Below are positions 1,769 to 10,847 of a stretch of DNA of 64,000 bases, piece after piece. Within the stretch, counting starts at the first letter, position 1, and each line of letters starts with the position of its first letter. Source of the DNA: Minisyncoccota bacterium (lineage in GTDB: Bacteria > Patescibacteriota > Minisyncoccia > Phycocordibacterales > UBA2135). Position numbers and translations under genes: made by a program. Where the stretch lies: NCBI GenBank assembly GCA_040879685.1, contig JBBDJW010000005.1, positions 21,741-85,740 on the forward strand. The letters run 5' to 3'. The notes under the pieces are model-generated. The model had not been told where the DNA came from, did not search any database, and saw only the letters and a list, made by a program, of their open reading frames with translations.

Positions 1769-4700
1769 TTACAATTTTTTTATCTTCTCCACCACCAAAG
1801 AAAGTTCCCCATTTCTATGAGAAATTTTACCATTGATTAAAAGCGCCACAGGTTCTTCTAAAAGATCGCGATGGAGTGCATAGGTGCGCGGGAAAATGAC
1901 TGCATCTATCCTATCGTTTATGTCGGCTATTTTTGCAAACGCCATAGGCTCACCCTTTGAGGTAGTAATGGTTCGGATTTCTTCAAAAATACCGGCAACA
2001 GGCGTGGTAATCCCTTCTCTATAGTTACGCAGTCTTCCGATAGAGAGCTTTTTTTGTGCTATTTTTTCTTTATGTGGGTCAAGTGGATGCCCAGAGACAT
2101 AAACTCCCAGTAGTTCTCTTTCCCAAATAAGCTTCTCCTCTAAAGTGAGTTTTTTTGCACCTTTGAGACGAAGCGAGGGGAGTGACTCTTTTTCATTCAT
2201 TAGTGAGAAAAGTGAGCTTTGTGAATCTCCCATTTTTGTTTGTGATTTGCTATAGGAAAGCGCTTCTTCCATATTAGCAAGCATTTCAGCCCTTCCCTCC
2301 AATTTATCCAGTGCGCCACACTTGATGAGTGACTCTAGAGATTTTTTATTAAGGTTGCGATGATGGATTCTTCCAAGAAATTCTTCAAATGAGGTGAATT
2401 TTCCGTTTTTTCCCCGCTCTTCAATAAGAGCATCAGCTATCTCACGACCGAAATTCTTGATTGAGTAGAGTCCAAAGCGAATCTGGTCACCTAAAGAGAC
2501 TTCTTTTTTTGAAGCGGAGTCCGGTGACTTTGAAGGAAGTCCAGGCTTGCTGGCTTTAATAACAGTAAAGTCTCCAAAACTCTCATTGACATCAGGTGGG
2601 AGGACAGGGATTCCTATACGAATACATTCCACAATAAGCTCGGAAATTTTCTGTGTATCGCCCGCATCGGCCGTAAGAACAGAAGCCATATATTCTGTCG
2701 GATAGTGCGTCTTCATATATGCAGTTTGGTAAGCAACCTTACCATAACTTGCGGCGTGGGCCTTGTTGAAACCGTATCCCTGAAATGGTTCAAAGAGGCT
2801 CCAGAGATGCTCGGCGTCTTTCTCACTCATCCCGCTATATTTTTGACACTTTTCAACAAAAAGAATATGTTGTTTTGCCATTTCTTCAGGATTTTTTTTA
2901 CCAACAGCCTTTCTAAATTTATCTACTTCTCCCCAACTATATCCGGCAACTTTGATTGCACTCATAAGAAGGTCATCTTGATACACAAGTACGCCATGAG
3001 TGGTACTAAGAAACTCTTCCATTTTAGGGTGGGCGTACGTCGTCTCCTTTTGGGCATTTTTTCGTGCGATATATTCGTTTATGTTTTCCATTGGTCCAGG
3101 GCGATAGAGTGCGACCATAAGGTTGATGTCATGGATAGAGGTTGGCTTGAGTTCTTTTAAATAACGGGTCATACCTTGGCCGTTTAATTGAAAAAGAGCC
3201 AGCGTTTCTCCTCGTGTGAGTAGCTCAAATGTTTCCTTATCATCCATAGGTATTTTTTCGACATCAATATCCTTGCCGTAATTCTCTCTAACGCGTACGC
3301 GCGTATTAGAGAGAATGGTGAGGTTTTTAATGCCAAGAAAATCAAATTTCAGAAGCCCCATATCTTCAACGGAGTGCATGTCATACTGCGTTATAATCCG
3401 CTCTCCTTGCGGGTCATATTGAAGGGGAACAAATTCAGAAAGAGGTCGAGAAGAGATAACAACACCGGCCGCGTGAACGCTAATGTGCCGGACGGTCCCT
3501 TCAAGTTTTTTTGCCAAGTCAATAATCTCTCGTGCATCATCCTCTTGTTTATATATTTTTTCAAGTTCGGGGATCGTTGCGAGCGCACGGTCTATGGTCA
3601 TGGGAAAGCCTTGTAAACCAAAAGGGATGAGTTTTGAGATACGATCACCTGTTGCATAGGGGTAGCCAAGGGAGCGCGCAACATCGCGCACTGCTCCGCG
3701 CGCCATCATGGTCCCGAAGGTGCCAATCTGAGCAACCTTATCTTCCCCATATTTATGCCGTGCGTACGCGATTACTTCATCACGCCTGTCATCAGCAAAA
3801 TCCATATCAACATCCGGGGCCGAAGGACGCTCGGGGTTTAAGAATCGTTCAAAGGGGAGTTTGAAGTAGAGCGGATCAACATTGGTAATGCCGGTGAGAT
3901 AAGAAACAAGAGAACCGGCGGCACTGCCGCGCGTTGTTGTTAAAATGCTTCGCTTTTGCGCAAAGTGGAGAAGGTCCCCTACGACAAGGAAGTAGGGTGA
4001 GTACCCTTTTGACTTGATAACATTAAGTTCATATTCAATTCTCTCACGTACTTCCTTCGTCTCCTTCATATTTTTCTTTTTGAGACCTTCATAGGTAAGG
4101 CGTTTAAGCTCCGAGTCGTAACTTGTCCCCTTTGGAATTTCATAGTTAGGAAAGTTCCAATCACCCATTGAGAGCGAAAGTGTGCACATCTCTGCAATTT
4201 TTTCTGTATTTTCTACTGCCTCGGGAATATCAGCAAAATATTCCTTAGCTGTTTTGGTATCAATAAAAGAAAAGCTGTCTCCCGAGAGCGAAAGACGGCG
4301 TGCATCATCAAGGTCGGTGTTTTGTTGAATTGCAAGAAGTGTCTCATGGGCTCGCGCATCTTCATCATGCAAATAATGCGAATCTTGAGTTCCCACAAGG
4401 GGAAGGTTATGTTTTCGAGCAAGGTCAATGGTCGCTGCACGTACTTCAAGGAGTCCCTCAATATTGGGGTGGTGCATTATTTCAAGAAAGTAACGGTCTT
4501 TACCAAAGATGTCTTTATATTCAGCAATCACTTCTTCAGCACATTCCATATTTTTATTCTCAAGAGCACGTGAGAGTTCGCTTGCCATACAGCCAGAGAG
4601 ACACACGAGTCCTTCGGAGTGCTGGCGCAAGAGCTCTTTATCAATTCGTGGCTTGTAGTAAAATCCTTCCAAATGAGAAAGTGAGACGAGCTTCACAAGA

Positions 4701-5002
4701 TTACTATAGCCTTTCTCGTTTTGCGCAAGAAGGGTGAGATGGTAGCGCCGATTATCAATGCCCGCTCGTTTTTCATACATACTCCCTTGTGCAATGTACG
4801 CTTCAAGACCAATAATGGGTTTGATGCCCTCTGTTTTGCATTTTTTATAAAATTCAATCGCTCCATAGAGCACGCCATGATCGGTAAGAGCGAGCGCGGG
4901 CATTTCATATTTTTTTGCTAAGTCAACCATCGGTCCCACCTTGGAGAGGCCATCCAAAAGAGAGTAGTGTGAATGAGTGTGTAAATGGATGAAGGAAGAC
5001 AT
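1769..5002 (-). CDS. dnaE: DNA polymerase III alpha subunit
   Basis: 1077 aa. N-terminal PHP domain HLHTHSHYSLLDG, and polymerase core motifs. Confidence 0.93.
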   Translation of the reverse strand: MSSFIHLHTHSHYSLLDGLSKVGPMVDLAKKYEMPALALTDHGVLYGAIEFYKKCKTEGIKPIIGLEAYIAQGSMYEKRAGIDNRRYHLTLLAQNEKGYSNLVKLVSLSHLEGFYYKPRIDKELLRQHSEGLVCLSGCMASELSRALENKNMECAEEVIAEYKDIFGKDRYFLEIMHHPNIEGLLEVRAATIDLARKHNLPLVGTQDSHYLHDEDARAHETLLAIQQNTDLDDARRLSLSGDSFSFIDTKTAKEYFADIPEAVENTEKIAEMCTLSLSMGDWNFPNYEIPKGTSYDSELKRLTYEGLKKKNMKETKEVRERIEYELNVIKSKGYSPYFLVVGDLLHFAQKRSILTTTRGSAAGSLVSYLTGITNVDPLYFKLPFERFLNPERPSAPDVDMDFADDRRDEVIAYARHKYGEDKVAQIGTFGTMMARGAVRDVARSLGYPYATGDRISKLIPFGLQGFPMTIDRALATIPELEKIYKQEDDAREIIDLAKKLEGTVRHISVHAAGVVISSRPLSEFVPLQYDPQGERIITQYDMHSVEDMGLLKFDFLGIKNLTILSNTRVRVRENYGKDIDVEKIPMDDKETFELLTRGETLALFQLNGQGMTRYLKELKPTSIHDINLMVALYRPGPMENINEYIARKNAQKETTYAHPKMEEFLSTTHGVLVYQDDLLMSAIKVAGYSWGEVDKFRKAVGKKNPEEMAKQHILFVEKCQKYSGMSEKDAEHLWSLFEPFQGYGFNKAHAASYGKVAYQTAYMKTHYPTEYMASVLTADAGDTQKISELIVECIRIGIPVLPPDVNESFGDFTVIKASKPGLPSKSPDSASKKEVSLGDQIRFGLYSIKNFGREIADALIEERGKNGKFTSFEEFLGRIHHRNLNKKSLESLIKCGALDKLEGRAEMLANMEEALSYSKSQTKMGDSQSSLFSLMNEKESLPSLRLKGAKKLTLEEKLIWERELLGVYVSGHPLDPHKEKIAQKKLSIGRLRNYREGITTPVAGIFEEIRTITTSKGEPMAFAKIADINDRIDAVIFPRTYALHRDLLEEPVALLINGKISHRNGELSLVVEKIKKL

Positions 5003-5039
5003 GGTATGCTAATAGTTATCAGTATAGCACACACTTTCT

Positions 5040-5660
5040 ATGGTAAGGACGAAGGCGTACAAGTATATAATTGGTGCCGATGAGGCAGGACGCGGACCCT
5101 TGGCAGGGCCTGTGGCTGTTGCTTGTGTAAAAATGGTAGCTTCCTTATATGATGAGGAGGCGCTTTTTTCTCGCTTTGCATATCTGAATGATTCAAAGAA
5201 AGTAACACCAAAACGACGTGAGGTGCTCTATGAAGAAATAAAGAAGGCCCAGAAAGAAAAAATACTTTCAGTAGCTCTCTTTTTTACTTCAAACAAAGAA
5301 ATAGATAAAAGAGGTATTATGAAGGCGACCCACGCCGCACTTCACCGAGGGCTCTTCAAATGCACGAATAATCCGGAGGACGCCCACGTATTACTTGATG
5401 GAACGCTTACGGCCCCCGATGTGTTTGTAAGACAAAAAACAATTATTCATGGAGACGAGAAAGAACCCTTAATCATGCTCGCTTCAATTGTTGCTAAAGT
5501 TTCTCGCGATAGGGCAATGTTTGCCTTGGCACAGGAGTACCCGCACTATGGTTTTGAGAAGCATAAGGGATACGGGACAAAAGAGCACACGCGTGCACTT
5601 TACCGTTACGGTCCTTGTCCAGCACATCGTATAAGTTTTCTCTCTCGGATTTTAAAATAA
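5040..5660 (+). CDS. rnhB: ribonuclease HII
   Basis: YIIGADEAGRGPLAGPV motif. 206 aa. Confidence 0.9.
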   Translation: MVRTKAYKYIIGADEAGRGPLAGPVAVACVKMVASLYDEEALFSRFAYLNDSKKVTPKRREVLYEEIKKAQKEKILSVALFFTSNKEIDKRGIMKATHAALHRGLFKCTNNPEDAHVLLDGTLTAPDVFVRQKTIIHGDEKEPLIMLASIVAKVSRDRAMFALAQEYPHYGFEKHKGYGTKEHTRALYRYGPCPAHRISFLSRILK

Positions 5661-5897
5661 AAATAGTCCTTTGATATTCTTTGTAGAGTGTTTTTTATAA
5701 CCATAGAGCGCCCACCAGCTATTTCAAGGCTCTCTTAGAAAGTTTGTCTGGGAAGAGATTGAAGCCAACCCTCCTTCTCGGTGGAAACTAAAACGAAGAT
5801 GATGTATCGCGGGCTAGGTATCTGGAGGCTTTTTCTTTTAAATTTAAACGGCCTAAACCATTGCTTTTTTGAGGACTTTATGTAATACTAGGCAATT

Positions 5898-6104
5898 ATG
5901 TCAGTACGAATGAGGCATACGAGAGGCCACACAAAAAACAGGCGCTCTCACCATTTCTTAAAAGAACCGTGTCTTGCCACGTGCGGAAAGTGCGGAGAAA
6001 AGCACCTCTATCACAGAGCGTGTCTTTCTTGTGGTACCTACAAAGGTAAAGAAGTTCGTGTTTCTGCAAAGACTCGTACGAAGAAAGATGAGAAGAAGGC
6101 ATAA
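5898..6104 (+). CDS. rpmF: 50S ribosomal protein L32
   Basis: 68 aa, MSVRMRHTRGHTKNRRSHH...C..CG..HL.HRAC..CG.YKG zinc ribbon. Confidence 0.85.
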   Translation: MSVRMRHTRGHTKNRRSHHFLKEPCLATCGKCGEKHLYHRACLSCGTYKGKEVRVSAKTRTKKDEKKA

Positions 6105-6156
6105 TTTTCTTCTGTCACATTTATTGTTGAAGGGAAGAGGGAGTGCGCTTTTATAT

Positions 6157-7092
6157 ATGGCGAATAGGCACCTTTCAAGAAGTATTGTAATGCAGACCCT
6201 CTTTGAGTGGGATTTTATGCACTATGATACGACAAAAGCACAAGAAATCCTTGAGCGTAATGCTAAGGAGTTTGCTCCCGGATTGCCTCAAGAGGCACGT
6301 GCGGGAGATTTTTCATTTACAAAGAAACTTCTTGAAGGAATTCTTAAAAAACAAAAAACACTAGACTCTCTCATTGAGAAAGCAGCACCTGAATGGCCTC
6401 TTTCTAAAGTATCTATTGTTGACCGCAACGTACTTCGTATAGGTCTCTACGAACTTCTCTTTGGAGTGAAGGGAGAGGTACCTCCTAAGGTGGCAATTAA
6501 CGAAGCAATTGAACTTGCAAAAACGTTTAGCGGGCTCAATAGCGGAAAGTTTATTAATGGAGTGCTCGGTAGCGTCTATCGTGAGTTAGGTGAACCAGGA
6601 AAAAACGACAAGCCAGTAAAAAAGAACCACAACATTGACCCAGCGAAAATGCCTATTTATAAAAAGGGCGGGGCGGTTATCTACAGTATTCATGAAGGAG
6701 TTGTGCATCTCGCCCTTGTCCACGATATCTTTGGCCGTTGGACATTATCAAAAGGAGGGATTGAAACCATGGGTGACCAAAAGGAATTGACAGTAAAAAA
6801 AATTAAAGAGGAAATCGGTATTACTATTACAATAGAAGATACACTCGGAGAGAATGAATACATCGCCTCTGATCCTCAGGAAGGCAAGGTTCGCAAACAA
6901 GTAACCTACTATCTTGCGAGCGCCTCTTATCAAACGCTTACGCTTGGTGAGACCGGGGGACTTGATGATGTAAGATGGTTTCCACTTGCTGAAGTGCCAT
7001 CGTTGAGGATGTATGATGATATTTTGCCGATTTTAACAAAAGGCATTGAGAAGATAACAAAAAAGAAAAACCGTTCAGAAGAAAAAAAATAA
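6157..7092 (+). CDS. nusB: NusB antitermination factor fused to a C-terminal Nudix-fold-like domain with a degenerate Nudix box
   Basis: ATG at 6157 preceded by GGGAAGAGGGAG. The N-terminal 145 aa match NusB: [30 protein letters not shown] versus E. coli [29 protein letters not shown]. The C-terminal 165 aa look like a Nudix fold: [30 protein letters not shown] and [13 protein letters not shown]. The frame is continuous. The ORF-track start at 5974 overlaps rpmF and is rejected. Confidence 0.75.
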   Translation: [311 protein letters not shown]

Positions 7093-7094
7093 TC

Positions 7095-7787
7095 ATGAAA
7101 GACTTTTCAGAATTTGAATCCATTTCCGCTGTTTCATTTAAAAACAAAGACCTCCTGAAGCAGGCCTTTCTTCATCGTTCATATTTAAATGAGCATCCTG
7201 AAGAAACATTAGGTAACAATGAACGCCTTGAATTCCTTGGAGACGCCGTTTTAGAGCTTGTAGTAACAGGGTATCTCTTTAACCGGTTTCCAGAGAAGCC
7301 AGAGGGGGAGCTTACCGCTTATCGTGCAGCGCTTGTTAATACACAAAGTATCTCAGAGGCCGCACGACGATTGTCTATGAACAACTTCCTTCTTCTTTCA
7401 AAAGGTGAGGCACGTGACACAGGAAAGGCACGAGACTATATTCTTGCAAACACCTTTGAATCGGTCATTGGCGCCATATATCTTGATTGCGGGTATGAAG
7501 AAGCGTATGAATTTATTAAAAACAATCTTTTTCCACAACTTGATGAAATTTTAGAAAATGGCTCATGGCAAGATGCGAAAAGTAAATTTCAAGAACGTGC
7601 ACAAGAGCACGAGGGAATTACGCCTGTCTATAACCTCCTTGAAGAAAATGGTCCCGATCATGCAAAGAATTTTATTGTCGGTGTATATTTGGGAGATGTA
7701 CTGAGAGGAGAGGGAGGCGGGGGGTCAAAACAACAAGCCGAGCAGGAGGCGGCGCTTGATGCGCTTAAAAAAAGCGGTTGGGAGTAA
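7095..7787 (+). CDS. rnc: ribonuclease III
   Basis: ERLEFLGDAVLELVVTGYLF signature. C-terminal dsRBD. Confidence 0.9.
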   Translation: MKDFSEFESISAVSFKNKDLLKQAFLHRSYLNEHPEETLGNNERLEFLGDAVLELVVTGYLFNRFPEKPEGELTAYRAALVNTQSISEAARRLSMNNFLLLSKGEARDTGKARDYILANTFESVIGAIYLDCGYEEAYEFIKNNLFPQLDEILENGSWQDAKSKFQERAQEHEGITPVYNLLEENGPDHAKNFIVGVYLGDVLRGEGGGGSKQQAEQEAALDALKKSGWE

Positions 7788-7804
7788 GCGAAACGTATAC
7801 ATGT

Positions 7805-10111
7805 ATGTACTTGAAGAGACTTCATCTTTCTGGTTTTAAATCATTTGCTCGGGATACTGAGCTTTCATTTACTACTCCTATAACAGCAATTGTTGGACCA
7901 AATGGTTCAGGGAAGTCAAACATTGCAGAAGCGATTCGTTTTGTACTCGGTGAACAGAGTATGAAATCCTTACGCTCAAAACGAGGTGAAGACCTTATCT
8001 TCAACGGTTCAAAAACGCTCTCCCGCGCAAGCAAGGCTAGTGTTGCAATTTCATTTGATAACACAAAAAAAACTTTTCCACTTGATTATGACGAGGTGGA
8101 GCTAAAACGAGTTGTGTATCGTGATACCACCAATCAATATTTTTTAAATGGAAAACGGGTACGATTGAAAGATATTATTGAAACACTCTCGGCGATTCAT
8201 ATTGGTGCGTCAAGTCATCACATTATCTCGCAAGGAGAGGCAGACAGAATTTTAAATGCCTCCATCAAAGAGCGAAGAGTAATGATTGAAGATGCACTTG
8301 GGTTGCGTATTTATCAATATAAAAAAGCAGAAAGCGAACGAAAACTAGCAAAAACAAAAGAAAACATAAACCACGTTGAGGCACTCAACAAAGAAATTAC
8401 TCCGCACCTCAAATTCTTAGAGAAACAAGTAAAGAAAATAGAAGAAGCAGAAGTTTTAAAAAAGGCTCTTATAGAGCTTTATAAGGAATATTTTGCTCTT
8501 GAAGAAGGATACCTAACACATCACCGTCTGCTTCTTGGCAAAAAGCGACATCTTCCTGAGGTGGAGCTTAGGGAGGTAGAGACACAAATAAAAGAGAGCG
8601 AGGAGGGCCTCTTGGTGCTTGAAGGAGGGGAGGTTAAGAGCCAAAAGAGAATTGACCTTGAGGAGAAACTTTCTAAAATTGCCAAAGAAAAAGATGAGCA
8701 CTCCCGCCGCCTCGGGCGTCTTGAGGGAATGCTTCTCTATGAAGAGAAAAGGAAGAAAAGGGCACAAAAAGAACCACGGGGAGAGAGAATAGAGATAAGC
8801 GCTTTCCACTTGCGAGATTTTATTGGTAAGCTCAAAAATCTTATTAAGGAGGGAGAAGGGCTTAGAGACAGTGCTTCTTTGTCGGGGCTTTGGGAGAGAA
8901 TGAAAAACACCGCAGAGGCATTTTATCAGCAGTATGAAATTGTTGCCCTCTCTGAAGAAAAACAAGAAGAGACTAAAATTGATGAAGAGGCTTTGTCACA
9001 CCAAGAGAATGAGGAAGATACCTATGAGCACCTTGTGTCGCAAAAGCGGTTACTTGAAGAAAAAGAACGAACACTGACTTCCGAGGAGAGGGATCTGCAA
9101 GAGAAACGAGAGAAACTTACACACACTATTGAAAAAGAAAGGGTGGAGGAGCGGGCAATTGAACAAAAATTATTTTCTCTACGAACACGAAAAACAGAGC
9201 TTCTTTCAGAAATTGAAATGGTGGGGGTCCATGAAGAGAGGCTCACTGAAGAAGAGAGGCGTTTTAACGTGGAGAGAACGGAAGCTGGGCATCTTCTCGG
9301 CCTTTCCTCTCTTCGTTATGAAAAGAAAACTTTCTCTGAATCAGTTGATAAAGAGGCGTTACGTATCTCACAGGAAGAAAAAAGAAGAAAGGCGGAGAGA
9401 ATGAAGGTTAAAATAGAAGACCTTGTTGGGGGCGGGGGAGACGAGCTCCTTGCTGAATATGAGGAGGTAAAAGAGCGGGCAGAATATTTAGAGAAAGAGC
9501 TTGTTGACTTGAGAAAGAGTACGGGAGCGCTTCTAGAACTTATTGGTGAGCTTGGAGAAAAAATTGACAAGGAATTTAAGGAAGGCGTTTTAAAAATAAA
9601 CAAAGAGTTTGGAAAGCTCTTTGAGACTATGTTTAGCGGGGGTGTTGCTAAAGTCGCATTAATTTCTCCGCCATCAAAACGAATAAAAAGAGATACAGAA
9701 GTTGAAGACGAATTTATAGAGGGGGGAGAGGAATTTGAAGAAGAACAAGAGGAAGGTATTGATATTGAAGTTTCCCTTCCTCATAAACGCCTTAAAGGAC
9801 TCCATATGCTCTCAGGAGGAGAAAGAACACTTACCTCTATTGCGCTCATCTTTGCACTCTCTTTGGTCAATCCGCCACCATTTTTAGTACTTGATGAGAC
9901 AGACGCTGCTCTTGACGAGGCAAATTCAAGAAAATATGGAGAGGTGGTTAAGGAACTCTCAAAAAAGACGCAATTTATTATCATCACTCATAATCGTGAG
10001 ACAATGAATACCGCGCATGTACTCTATGGCGTCACCTCAACTTTCGATGCGGTGTCTAGAATTCTTTCTCTTAAATTTGATGAGGCCGAGGAGTTGGCAC
10101 AAAGTGTGTGA
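7805..10111 (+). CDS. smc: SMC-family chromosome segregation ATPase, short form. Head domains and coiled coil are present; no hinge is recognisable.
   Basis: N-terminus LSGFKSF...IVGPNGSGKSNIAEAIRFVLGE. C-terminus LSGGERTLTSIALIFAL...LVLDETDAALDEAN. The 770 aa between are all charged heptad-like sequence. The in-frame ATG at 7805 is preferred over the TTG at 7778, which overlaps the rnc stop. Confidence 0.8.
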   Translation: MYLKRLHLSGFKSFARDTELSFTTPITAIVGPNGSGKSNIAEAIRFVLGEQSMKSLRSKRGEDLIFNGSKTLSRASKASVAISFDNTKKTFPLDYDEVELKRVVYRDTTNQYFLNGKRVRLKDIIETLSAIHIGASSHHIISQGEADRILNASIKERRVMIEDALGLRIYQYKKAESERKLAKTKENINHVEALNKEITPHLKFLEKQVKKIEEAEVLKKALIELYKEYFALEEGYLTHHRLLLGKKRHLPEVELREVETQIKESEEGLLVLEGGEVKSQKRIDLEEKLSKIAKEKDEHSRRLGRLEGMLLYEEKRKKRAQKEPRGERIEISAFHLRDFIGKLKNLIKEGEGLRDSASLSGLWERMKNTAEAFYQQYEIVALSEEKQEETKIDEEALSHQENEEDTYEHLVSQKRLLEEKERTLTSEERDLQEKREKLTHTIEKERVEERAIEQKLFSLRTRKTELLSEIEMVGVHEERLTEEERRFNVERTEAGHLLGLSSLRYEKKTFSESVDKEALRISQEEKRRKAERMKVKIEDLVGGGGDELLAEYEEVKERAEYLEKELVDLRKSTGALLELIGELGEKIDKEFKEGVLKINKEFGKLFETMFSGGVAKVALISPPSKRIKRDTEVEDEFIEGGEEFEEEQEEGIDIEVSLPHKRLKGLHMLSGGERTLTSIALIFALSLVNPPPFLVLDETDAALDEANSRKYGEVVKELSKKTQFIIITHNRETMNTAHVLYGVTSTFDAVSRILSLKFDEAEELAQSV

Positions 10112-10238
10112 GCATGTAGTTTTTAGGTGATCAGTGCCTAAGAGTCTGAGAGAGGGGTAAGAATTATTAAAATCTAAAATTCAAATACTCCAGCACCCTA
10201 AGCTTCTCTTCGCAAAGCCAAGGATTGCAAGCTCTCTG

Positions 10239-10847
10239 TTAGCGTCTATTTTCCATTGCCGCCTTAATGGTGTCGGCATCTGAATACTCAAGTTCAGTGC
10301 CCGTTGAAAGTCCACGACCTAGTGTAGTAATAGTAAAACCGTGTTTTTTCGAGAGTGGGATAAGATAACGCCTAATTTCATCTCCTGTGTGATCGCCCTC
10401 GGGGTTTGCAGAGAGCGCAATAATAATTTCCTTTAATCCTTCTTCACGCGCGCGTTTCTCTACCAAAGAAGAGAGCGAGTGTAGGTAGGGTTCGCTCTCG
10501 TCTGTGTTTCTAAGCGAGAGAAGTCCGCCGAGTACAAAATATTTTCCTTCATAGAGAGAAGCTTTTTTGACCGCCTCCATATCAATATCTTTTGCGACAA
10601 TCATTAAGAGTGAACTGTCGGCATTTTTATCAGAACAGGTAGCGCAGTAATTAGAGACGCCCTCAAAATAGCTGTGGCAAGACTCACACTTTATCATAGT
10701 GCTCTTAAGATTTTGTAGATTTACAACTAATTCTTCAATGAATGTGGGATGGGTGCGTAGCAAAAAATAAACAAACCGCTCAGCTTGACGGCTTCCAATA
10801 CCAGGAAATTTCATAAAAAGTGACACGAGTTTATCTTTCGTTCTCAT
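10239..10847 (-). CDS. recR: recombination protein RecR
   Basis: KFPGIGSRQAERFVYFLL HhH motif, a C4 zinc finger (C.C...C..C) and a Toprim-like C-terminus. Confidence 0.85.
   Translation of the reverse strand: MRTKDKLVSLFMKFPGIGSRQAERFVYFLLRTHPTFIEELVVNLQNLKSTMIKCESCHSYFEGVSNYCATCSDKNADSSLLMIVAKDIDMEAVKKASLYEGKYFVLGGLLSLRNTDESEPYLHSLSSLVEKRAREEGLKEIIIALSANPEGDHTGDEIRRYLIPLSKKHGFTITTLGRGLSTGTELEYSDADTIKAAMENRR

Follow-up and report, generated by a model that had tools for sequence, protein, structure and literature searches.

The window analysed here is a stretch of 64,000 nucleotides from a Minisyncoccota bacterium (assembly GCA_040879685.1, contig JBBDJW010000005.1, positions 21,741 to 85,740 of the forward strand), and the gene in question, nusB::nudix, joins the transcription antitermination factor NusB to a Nudix-fold domain within one reading frame. 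As judged from Pfam matches, the gene order around it is dnaE (minus strand), rnhB, rpmF, nusB::nudix, rnc, smc, recR (minus strand) and dnaB (minus strand), which confirms the rpmF-nusB-rnc-smc neighbourhood proposed in the initial annotation of this DNA, and likewise its statement that the reading frame continues past NusB without a stop. The gene is a single unbroken open reading frame (ORF) on the plus strand, extending from the ATG at 6157 to the TAA at 7090-7092 and encoding 311 amino acids (aa). We take 6157 to be the true start because the first 11 residues of the product are conserved in 116 of 121 aligned homologues. A public entry with a sequence identical to the window protein (P0001) is recorded as 300 aa long and begins at the internal Met12, so that the part encoded by 6157-6189 is missing; this looks like a start-codon miscall in the public record. 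Coordinates of the gene, its parts and its neighbours are given in Table 1.

Table 1. Features of the nusB::nudix locus (positions are those of the window)
Feature	Position	Strand	Basis and remarks
rpmF, ribosomal protein L32	5898..6104	+	PF01783; conserved upstream neighbour
Shine-Dalgarno-like GGAG	6140..6143	+	13 nt 5' of the ATG; read from the sequence, putative function
nusB::nudix fusion gene	6157..7092	+	ORF; both Pfam domains in one frame
NusB domain, aa 1-147, ending in ELGEPG	6157..6597	+	PF01029, TIGR01951, PDB matches, Foldseek
6-aa insertion PQEARA, aa 44-49, in a NusB loop	6286..6303	+	Lineage-specific; alignment
Flexible basic linker, aa 148-166	6598..6654	+	AF2 pLDDT, family alignment, translation
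Nudix-fold domain, predicted Ap4A-hydrolase (NUDT2-like) branch, aa 167-303	6655..7065	+	PF00293, AF2, Foldseek, PDB profile
Degenerate Nudix box, aa 200-222 (E206G, R214K, E215K)	6754..6822	+	Translation compared with family consensus
Lys-rich C-terminal tail, aa 304-311, variable in the family	7066..7089	+	Mostly gaps in homologues; pLDDT 47 at the end of the model
rnc, RNase III	7095..7787	+	Ribonuclease_3 and dsrm; begins 2 nt past the nusB::nudix stop
SMC homologue, 777 aa, SMC_N at aa 11-758	7778-10111	+	Pfam

The N-terminal 145 aa or so had been recognised as NusB from the letters alone, and TIGR01951, PF01029 and the predicted fold all agree on this identification. PF01029 matches aa 7-142 (E 1.2e-32; 113.6 bits against a threshold of 23.1), the NCBIfam model TIGR01951 (nusB) scores 118.8 bits (cutoff 88.35), and its PDB matches include NusB of E. 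coli (3IMQ/3D3B) and of T. maritima (1TZT, 2.8e-19). In the C-terminal helix block the sequence hardly departs from that of E. coli NusB, which bears out the near-identity claimed for that block. The AlphaFold2 (AF2) model has seven helices within aa 2-144, arranged in the all-helical NusB fold, and Foldseek aligns it with NusB of T. maritima, M. tuberculosis and Aquifex at target-normalised TM-scores (TMt) of 0.81-0.89; the NusB-NusE-BoxA complex 3R2C is also among the NusB matches. By homology, this half is expected to bind S10/NusE and the boxA RNA of the rRNA leader. The window protein is the sole NusB in the 64-kb window, where neither the family hidden Markov models (HMMs) nor a relaxed Nudix-box pattern picked up a second NusB or Nudix gene. 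Its sequence bears one peculiarity, the insertion PQEARA, which is confined to the window protein and its public duplicate P0001, the other 119 of the 121 aligned sequences having a gap, and across which AF2 confidence is low.

Comparison with canonical NusB of E. coli and T. maritima delimits what has been added. The full length of the canonical protein is shared with the N-terminal 147 aa of the window protein, as seen from HMM, fold and motif; whereas canonical NusB stops a few residues past NGVL, the window protein goes on with ELGEPG, a family-invariant motif that closes the NusB half, then with a basic linker and a domain of about 140 aa. RsmB/Sun is built on a similar plan, with a NusB-fold RNA-binding module N-terminal to an enzyme domain acting on rRNA, but its fused domain is an rRNA methyltransferase, unlike the Nudix domain found here. 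RsmB was itself considered as a paralogous identity for the NusB half and rejected: RsmB models match weakly and far under their cutoffs (50 against 319 bits), and the half is an orthologous NusB instead.

The C-terminal 165 aa or so, for which a Nudix fold had been proposed, are indeed a Nudix domain by HMM score, predicted structure and structural matches. Pfam NUDIX (PF00293) is found at aa 193-285 (E 5e-7; 30.2 bits, gathering score 21.1), the domain modelled alone reaches a predicted local distance difference test (pLDDT) of 92 and a predicted TM-score (pTM) of 0.86, and Foldseek returns 531 PDB matches at E<=0.001, of which the top ones listed are all Nudix proteins. In the full-length model (mean pLDDT 84, pTM 0.51) both halves are confident and the linker is disordered, with pLDDT below 50 across aa 147-159. 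Throughout the family this linker measures 18-23 aa and carries a mean net charge of +2. With a full-length pTM of 0.51 and a disordered linker, no fixed interface between NusB and Nudix is predicted, and among the PDB structures searched with Foldseek none spans both halves. The picture suggested by these models is one of two independently folded domains on a flexible basic tether.

Within the Nudix superfamily, sequence and structure comparisons point to the branch of diadenosine tetraphosphate (Ap4A) hydrolases, to which the NUDT2-like proteins belong and to which we assign the domain. A profile built from 40 C-terminal domains of the family retrieves from the PDB, at the top, the Aquifex Ap4A hydrolase 3I7U (4.5e-9) and Chlamydia CT771, followed by the Nudix domain of the mycobacterial diadenosine polyphosphatase MutT1/Rv2985, the C. 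elegans (1KT9) and human NUDT2 enzymes, Dcp2 and Thermus Ndx1. The ranking by fold is broadly similar: 3I7U is the best Foldseek match of the domain model (E 8.5e-11, TM 0.76/0.85), and NrtR, MutT1/Rv2985, 1KTG, CT771 and Ndx1 come after it. NrtR is also the top PDB match when the window domain sequence is used alone (Shewanella 3GZ5/3GZ8, E 9e-6), but it falls well under the Ap4A hydrolases with the family profile. The small Ap4A hydrolases (3I7U, CT771, NUDT2, Ndx1, MutT1/Rv2985) share with the window domain the W-T-x-x-K-G lead-in and the phosphate-binding and stacking residues; they differ from it in that the window domain is fused to NusB and has three consensus box residues replaced, the constraint on the box being relaxed across the NusB-fused family. 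As for other Nudix classes, the RppH, NudI and MutT equivalogs of NCBIfam all match far below threshold. Membership in RppH can be rejected (NF001936 gives 16-18 bits against a cutoff of 118), although the domain might still have an RppH-like activity.

Relatives of the domain also exist as stand-alone proteins of about 140 aa with canonical boxes, one of them in an ordinary metabolic context in a genome that does not look like one of the candidate phyla radiation (CPR). Another, P0148, is a 150-aa protein (146 bits, canonical box) encoded at 4001-4453 of a contig assembled from Logan SRR22388351, which also holds a phage-integrase-like gene, a DNA methylase and a faint Phage_rep_O match; this phage- or mobile-element-like contig suggests that close homologues of the fused Nudix domain travel on mobile elements or phages, here at least one. 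Members of this Nudix subfamily are also found in other arrangements (the group of P0188, P0249, P0217 and P0206), namely a tandem Nudix-Nudix protein of 291 aa, a protein of 1074 aa that carries two copies close to the C-terminal end, and proteins of 577 aa and 379 aa with a C-terminal Nudix copy and unidentified N-terminal parts.

The fusion is not peculiar to this genome. Both Pfam domains are present in 119 of the 120 closest database proteins, which are 57-100% identical to the window protein over at least 94% of its length, are 287-332 aa long and come, where the source is named, from Lloydbacteria, the Parcubacteria group, Paceibacterota and Patescibacteria. A scan of one genome per GTDB species yielded at least 593 loci encoding the C-terminal domain, and in a detailed analysis of the best 80 of these, NusB and Nudix lie in one ORF at 79. 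The exception (3503-4438 of locus L035, CAYUGY010000018.1) carries an in-frame TAA at the codon of the invariant Glu143 (YK*LGEPGK), which divides the gene into two ORFs; this looks like a sequencing error or a recent nonsense mutation, or it may be a genuine split. Neither a missing Nudix match nor a general division into two genes among relatives, the two outcomes that had been named as fatal to the fusion, was observed, and the survey of relatives suggested at the same time returned fused genes almost throughout. The NusB-Nudix fusion is thus confirmed as genuine and not the product of a frameshift. It is, moreover, the form that NusB normally takes in Parcubacteria/Paceibacteria-type Patescibacteria, where it is represented by thousands of sequences from hundreds of species; the architecture, which the initial annotation did not know as a standard one, is thus ordinary in its own clade. 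About half of the 80 loci (L001-L080) bear the title 'uncultured Candidatus Saccharibacteria bacterium' and belong to one Third Party Annotation (TPA) assembly series; proteins so titled resemble that of the window as closely as do those assigned to Parcubacteria or Paceibacterota. The title is probably a catch-all and does not show that Saccharibacteria have the fusion.

No publication describing a NusB-Nudix architecture was found in literature on NusB/Nudix fusions, Patescibacteria and the CPR, a search whose coverage excluded most subscription journals, and the closest named proteins are annotated only as 'transcription antitermination factor NusB'. The architecture is therefore widespread and visible in precomputed domain tables and yet, apparently, undescribed and functionally unexplored.

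The Nudix box of the window protein reads G200-GIETM-G206-DQKELTV-K214-K215-I-K-E218-E219-I-G221-I. Compared with the signature GX5EX7REUXEEXGU, three of the seven signature residues are replaced (E206G, R214K and E215K), including two of the four box glutamates and the arginine, and the sequence does not conform to the motif; G200, E218, E219 and G221 are retained. The box had been called degenerate on account of the replacement of RE by KK, which is correct, but the third loss, E206G, had been overlooked. The family consensus, G-x5-E-x7-R-E-I-K-E-E-x-G-[LIV], is a perfect Nudix box, and the canonical signature G-E-R-E-E-E-G is carried by 93 of the 121 close homologues and by 39 of the 79 species representatives, the other 40 of which fall into 29 different patterns. 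Degeneracy of the box, although seen in the window protein, is hence not a trait of the family or of its architecture, and these same counts are the reason why many relatives are probably active hydrolases: in those with a canonical box, the Nudix domain probably works as a pyrophosphohydrolase.

At greater evolutionary depth the canonical box becomes rarer among fused proteins. Among representatives of 50%-identity clusters, only 6 of 39 full-length fused proteins have it, whereas 19 of 24 stand-alone ones do; of these 39 deep fused representatives, no more than 9 have Glu at position 215. Parsimony on neighbour-joining trees of the 121 sequences requires at least 17-18 switches between canonical and non-canonical states, and at least 8 changes at E215 alone, mostly to Lys; the replacement of RE by KK has arisen independently in several lineages. 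The box is degenerate in another way (GKQEDEG) in P0003, the sister of the window protein with 70% identity, whereas the next relative (P0002) is canonical; the differing degenerate boxes of the two sisters suggest that the constraint had already been lost in their common ancestor. P0270, the most divergent fused member examined, has a box that reads GLAIDKN and no Pfam NUDIX match on record, and even there the domain is retained.

In sharp contrast to the box, the residues that align with the ligand pocket of Ap4A hydrolases hardly vary. D190, W195, T196, K199, Y235 and K247 are identical in all 79 species representatives, and W274 and Y286 in 78, the remaining one being truncated; accordingly, the set K199-Y235-K247-Y286 reads K-Y-K-Y in 78 of the 79. 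Among the 39 deep fused representatives, K199 and Y286 are each present in 38, position 247 is K in 29 and R in 6, position 235 is Y in 34 and F in 4, and D190, W195, T196 and W274 are again near-invariant. We take the columns of K199, Y235, K247 and Y286 to be those of Lys42, Tyr82, Lys89 and Phe128 in human NUDT2. In the C. elegans enzyme, the counterpart of Y286 is the C-terminal Tyr of the segment ...IADYAEM..., presumably the stacking residue Tyr121. In Ap4A hydrolases, the P1 phosphate is reported to be bound by Lys42, Tyr82 and Lys89, and the adenine to be stacked between Tyr82 and Phe128 (PMC4734340). By sequence alignment, as distinct from a superposition in three dimensions, the window protein thus keeps the predicted phosphate and base pocket of this enzyme class.

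The loss of box residues in the window protein is not part of a general decay of the domain. Although its Nudix half is somewhat more diverged than most, as is that of other members with degenerate boxes, the protein reaches 213 bits with a family HMM from which it had been left out (family mean, 230). Since this score comes with retention of every family-invariant residue and a pLDDT of 92, the domain is clearly not decaying.

Eroded boxes on intact Nudix folds have precedents in proteins that bind nucleotides without cleaving them. CF Im25, an RNA-processing factor whose Nudix fold lacks two of the four box glutamates, binds Ap4A (dissociation constant 2.4 uM) and ATP, and hydrolyses neither to a detectable extent (PMC2425470). 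This subunit of the eukaryotic cleavage factor Im (CPSF5/NUDT21) parallels the window protein in placing a Nudix fold in an RNA-processing or transcription-coupled factor, the analogy being one of working principle; homology is limited to the superfamily, and CF Im25 is a eukaryotic dimer that has no NusB part and whose Ap4A site lies partly outside the Nudix box. In NrtR, which resembles the window domain as its top single-sequence PDB match and its third match by fold, the Nudix domain is not an enzyme but an ADP-ribose sensor on a nucleic-acid-binding module. The PDB entry of NrtR itself shows only the complex with ADP-ribose, and NrtR differs from the window protein both in this ligand and in its partner domain, a winged-helix DNA binder. 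With its eroded box and retained predicted pocket, the window protein fits the type of non-catalytic Nudix binder that CF Im25 and NrtR represent.

On these grounds we consider it fairly likely that the window protein is a working NusB with a tethered module binding nucleoside polyphosphates or 5' ends, a module that would be catalytic in many relatives and probably non-catalytic here. The NusB half would join the rRNA antitermination and folding complex through S10/NusE and boxA, and the basic linker of about 20 aa would tether to it a Nudix domain derived from small Ap4A hydrolases. The pocket of the latter may hold a nucleoside polyphosphate, its phosphates contacted by a Tyr and two Lys and its base sandwiched between two aromatic residues; candidate ligands are free Ap4A-like nucleotides or, alternatively, the 5'-triphosphate or nucleoside-tetraphosphate (Np4)-capped end of the NusB-bound transcript. 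The narrower version, in which the module acts specifically on RNA 5' ends and the rRNA leader, seems to us doubtful. In relatives with a canonical box, the ligand would be hydrolysed next to the NusB-bound transcript; in the window protein it would be bound with little or no turnover, because two of the four box glutamates and the arginine are gone, and the domain would serve as a tether or a sensor. That the domain is catalytically dead or crippled here is, in our judgement, likely. Recurrent replacement of Glu by Lys at a metal-ligand position would, speculatively, fit a switch to metal-independent phosphate binding. Hydrolysis appears to have proved repeatedly dispensable in the evolution of these proteins, and the pocket not. 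A non-catalytic nucleotide- or RNA-end-binding role, put forward in the initial annotation, accordingly survives as the best reading of the window protein, given that catalytic positions drift while pocket-aligned residues stay invariant; this is a role we infer, and it probably does not extend to the whole family.

Several points weigh against the binding module thus proposed. E218, E219 and G221 remain in place, and residual or Mn-dependent activity may persist. The pocket was assigned by sequence alignment and not from a superposed model, and its residues are conserved in active stand-alone relatives as well, so that their invariance may partly reflect a constraint of the fold. AF2 predicts no contact between the domains, and allosteric coupling to NusB is therefore unsupported; the adjacency of rnc, finally, may merely be inherited operon order.

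The first of these points leads to the alternative that the window Nudix domain is still an active hydrolase and the whole family a NusB-tethered enzyme, for example with an RppH-, ApaH- or MutT-like activity directed at the 5' ends of nascent rRNA or at nucleotides in the vicinity of RNA polymerase. Retention of E218, E219, G200 and G221, the conservative nature of R214K, the canonical consensus box of the family and the fact that the closest solved relatives are active enzymes all speak for it. We nevertheless hold it to be rather unlikely, since two of the four box glutamates are gone and E215K brings in a positive charge, CF Im25 with an equal number of glutamate losses shows no hydrolysis (PMC2425470), and both the box of the sister P0003, which suggests an ancestral loss of constraint, and the additional divergence of the Nudix half in degenerate-box members run counter to continued catalysis.

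Dispensable catalytic residues would equally suit a domain that has become a protein-protein scaffold in the Nus/RNA polymerase complex, with nucleotide binding irrelevant. SuhB of E. coli, which binds RNA polymerase, offers the model: it is an enzyme-fold protein, though one of unrelated fold (inositol monophosphatase) and a separate polypeptide. It works with NusB on rRNA transcripts largely independently of catalysis, its growth phenotype as a member of the rRNA antitermination complex not being tied to enzymatic activity (PMC4807359), and it is reported to bind NusA (PMC6614797). Catalytic residues have been dispensable in many fused lineages of the present family, as a scaffold would allow. 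Yet the best-conserved positions align with ligand contacts of Ap4A hydrolases and outline no obvious new surface, and about half or more of the close relatives keep a perfect box, for which a scaffold has no need; this explanation we accordingly regard as quite improbable. That the fusion is an assembly or sequencing artefact, or its C-terminal half a decaying remnant, is scarcely credible: the in-frame TAA between the halves in L035 and the slightly above-average divergence of the window domain could be cited in its favour, but the stop replaces an invariant Glu codon, single ORFs are the rule in species genomes and closest proteins from many projects, and the window domain combines all invariant residues with a confidently predicted fold.

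The proposed binding module gains a possible context from the surrounding genes. Related loci preserve the arrangement of the window, with rpmF directly upstream in 73 of the 75 that have enough flanking sequence and rnc directly downstream or overlapping in 78 of 78, and both neighbours are likewise in place in divergent members; the gene of P0270, despite its eroded box, still sits between rpmF and rnc. Co-transcription of rpmF, nusB::nudix and rnc is plausible. A promoter and terminator scan of 5000-10400 gave match counts not above those of shuffled sequence, and it listed no plus-strand promoter match inside rpmF-nusB::nudix and no terminator match between rpmF, nusB::nudix and rnc, which is consistent with co-transcription without being evidence for it. 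In E. coli, mutations in rnc relieve the rRNA-maturation defects of nusB and other nus mutants, and the role proposed for Nus factors is to keep hold of the boxA leader and thereby allow correct formation of the 16S stem at which RNase III cuts (PMC4807359). A link between the fusion protein and both rRNA leader handling and RNase III processing may be inferred from these data. At its widest, the proposal would be that NusB in much of Patescibacteria has a built-in nucleoside-polyphosphate receptor or processor, which would make the NusB/S10/boxA complex, and the RNase III step encoded by the next gene, responsive to the level of alarmones of the Ap4A type or to whether the nascent rRNA leader bears a 5'-triphosphate or an Np4 cap, with many independent switches from enzyme to receptor, often through replacement of the metal-binding Glu of the RE pair by Lys; this we offer as a speculative and, on balance, unlikely generalisation.

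NusB is among the most conserved bacterial transcription factors and nearly always consists of some 140 aa with nothing attached. When, in a lineage of hundreds of species, each NusB examined carries a Nudix domain, this points to a connection, so far undescribed, between the chemistry of nucleotides or RNA 5' ends and the antitermination and maturation of rRNA. The genomes of these organisms are tiny, and fusions in such genomes tend to mark real functional coupling. The family furthermore provides a natural series from enzyme to pseudoenzyme, with one fold and one pocket in which catalytic residues have been lost at least 17 times, and the 'NusB'-only annotation currently hides the second domain in databases.

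Some further features of the window deserve mention. Its GC content is 42%, and no tRNA and no Rfam family reaching threshold was found anywhere in its 64 kb. The SMC homologue downstream of rnc has no hinge-domain match listed in Pfam, and a similar protein of 722 aa, with SMC_N as its only domain, is encoded at the locus of a divergent relative (L086, 4602-6770); such genomes look like they possess a short, possibly hinge-less SMC. The TTG listed as the start of the window SMC gene overlaps rnc, and translation may in fact begin at an ATG 27 nt further on (MYLKRL...).

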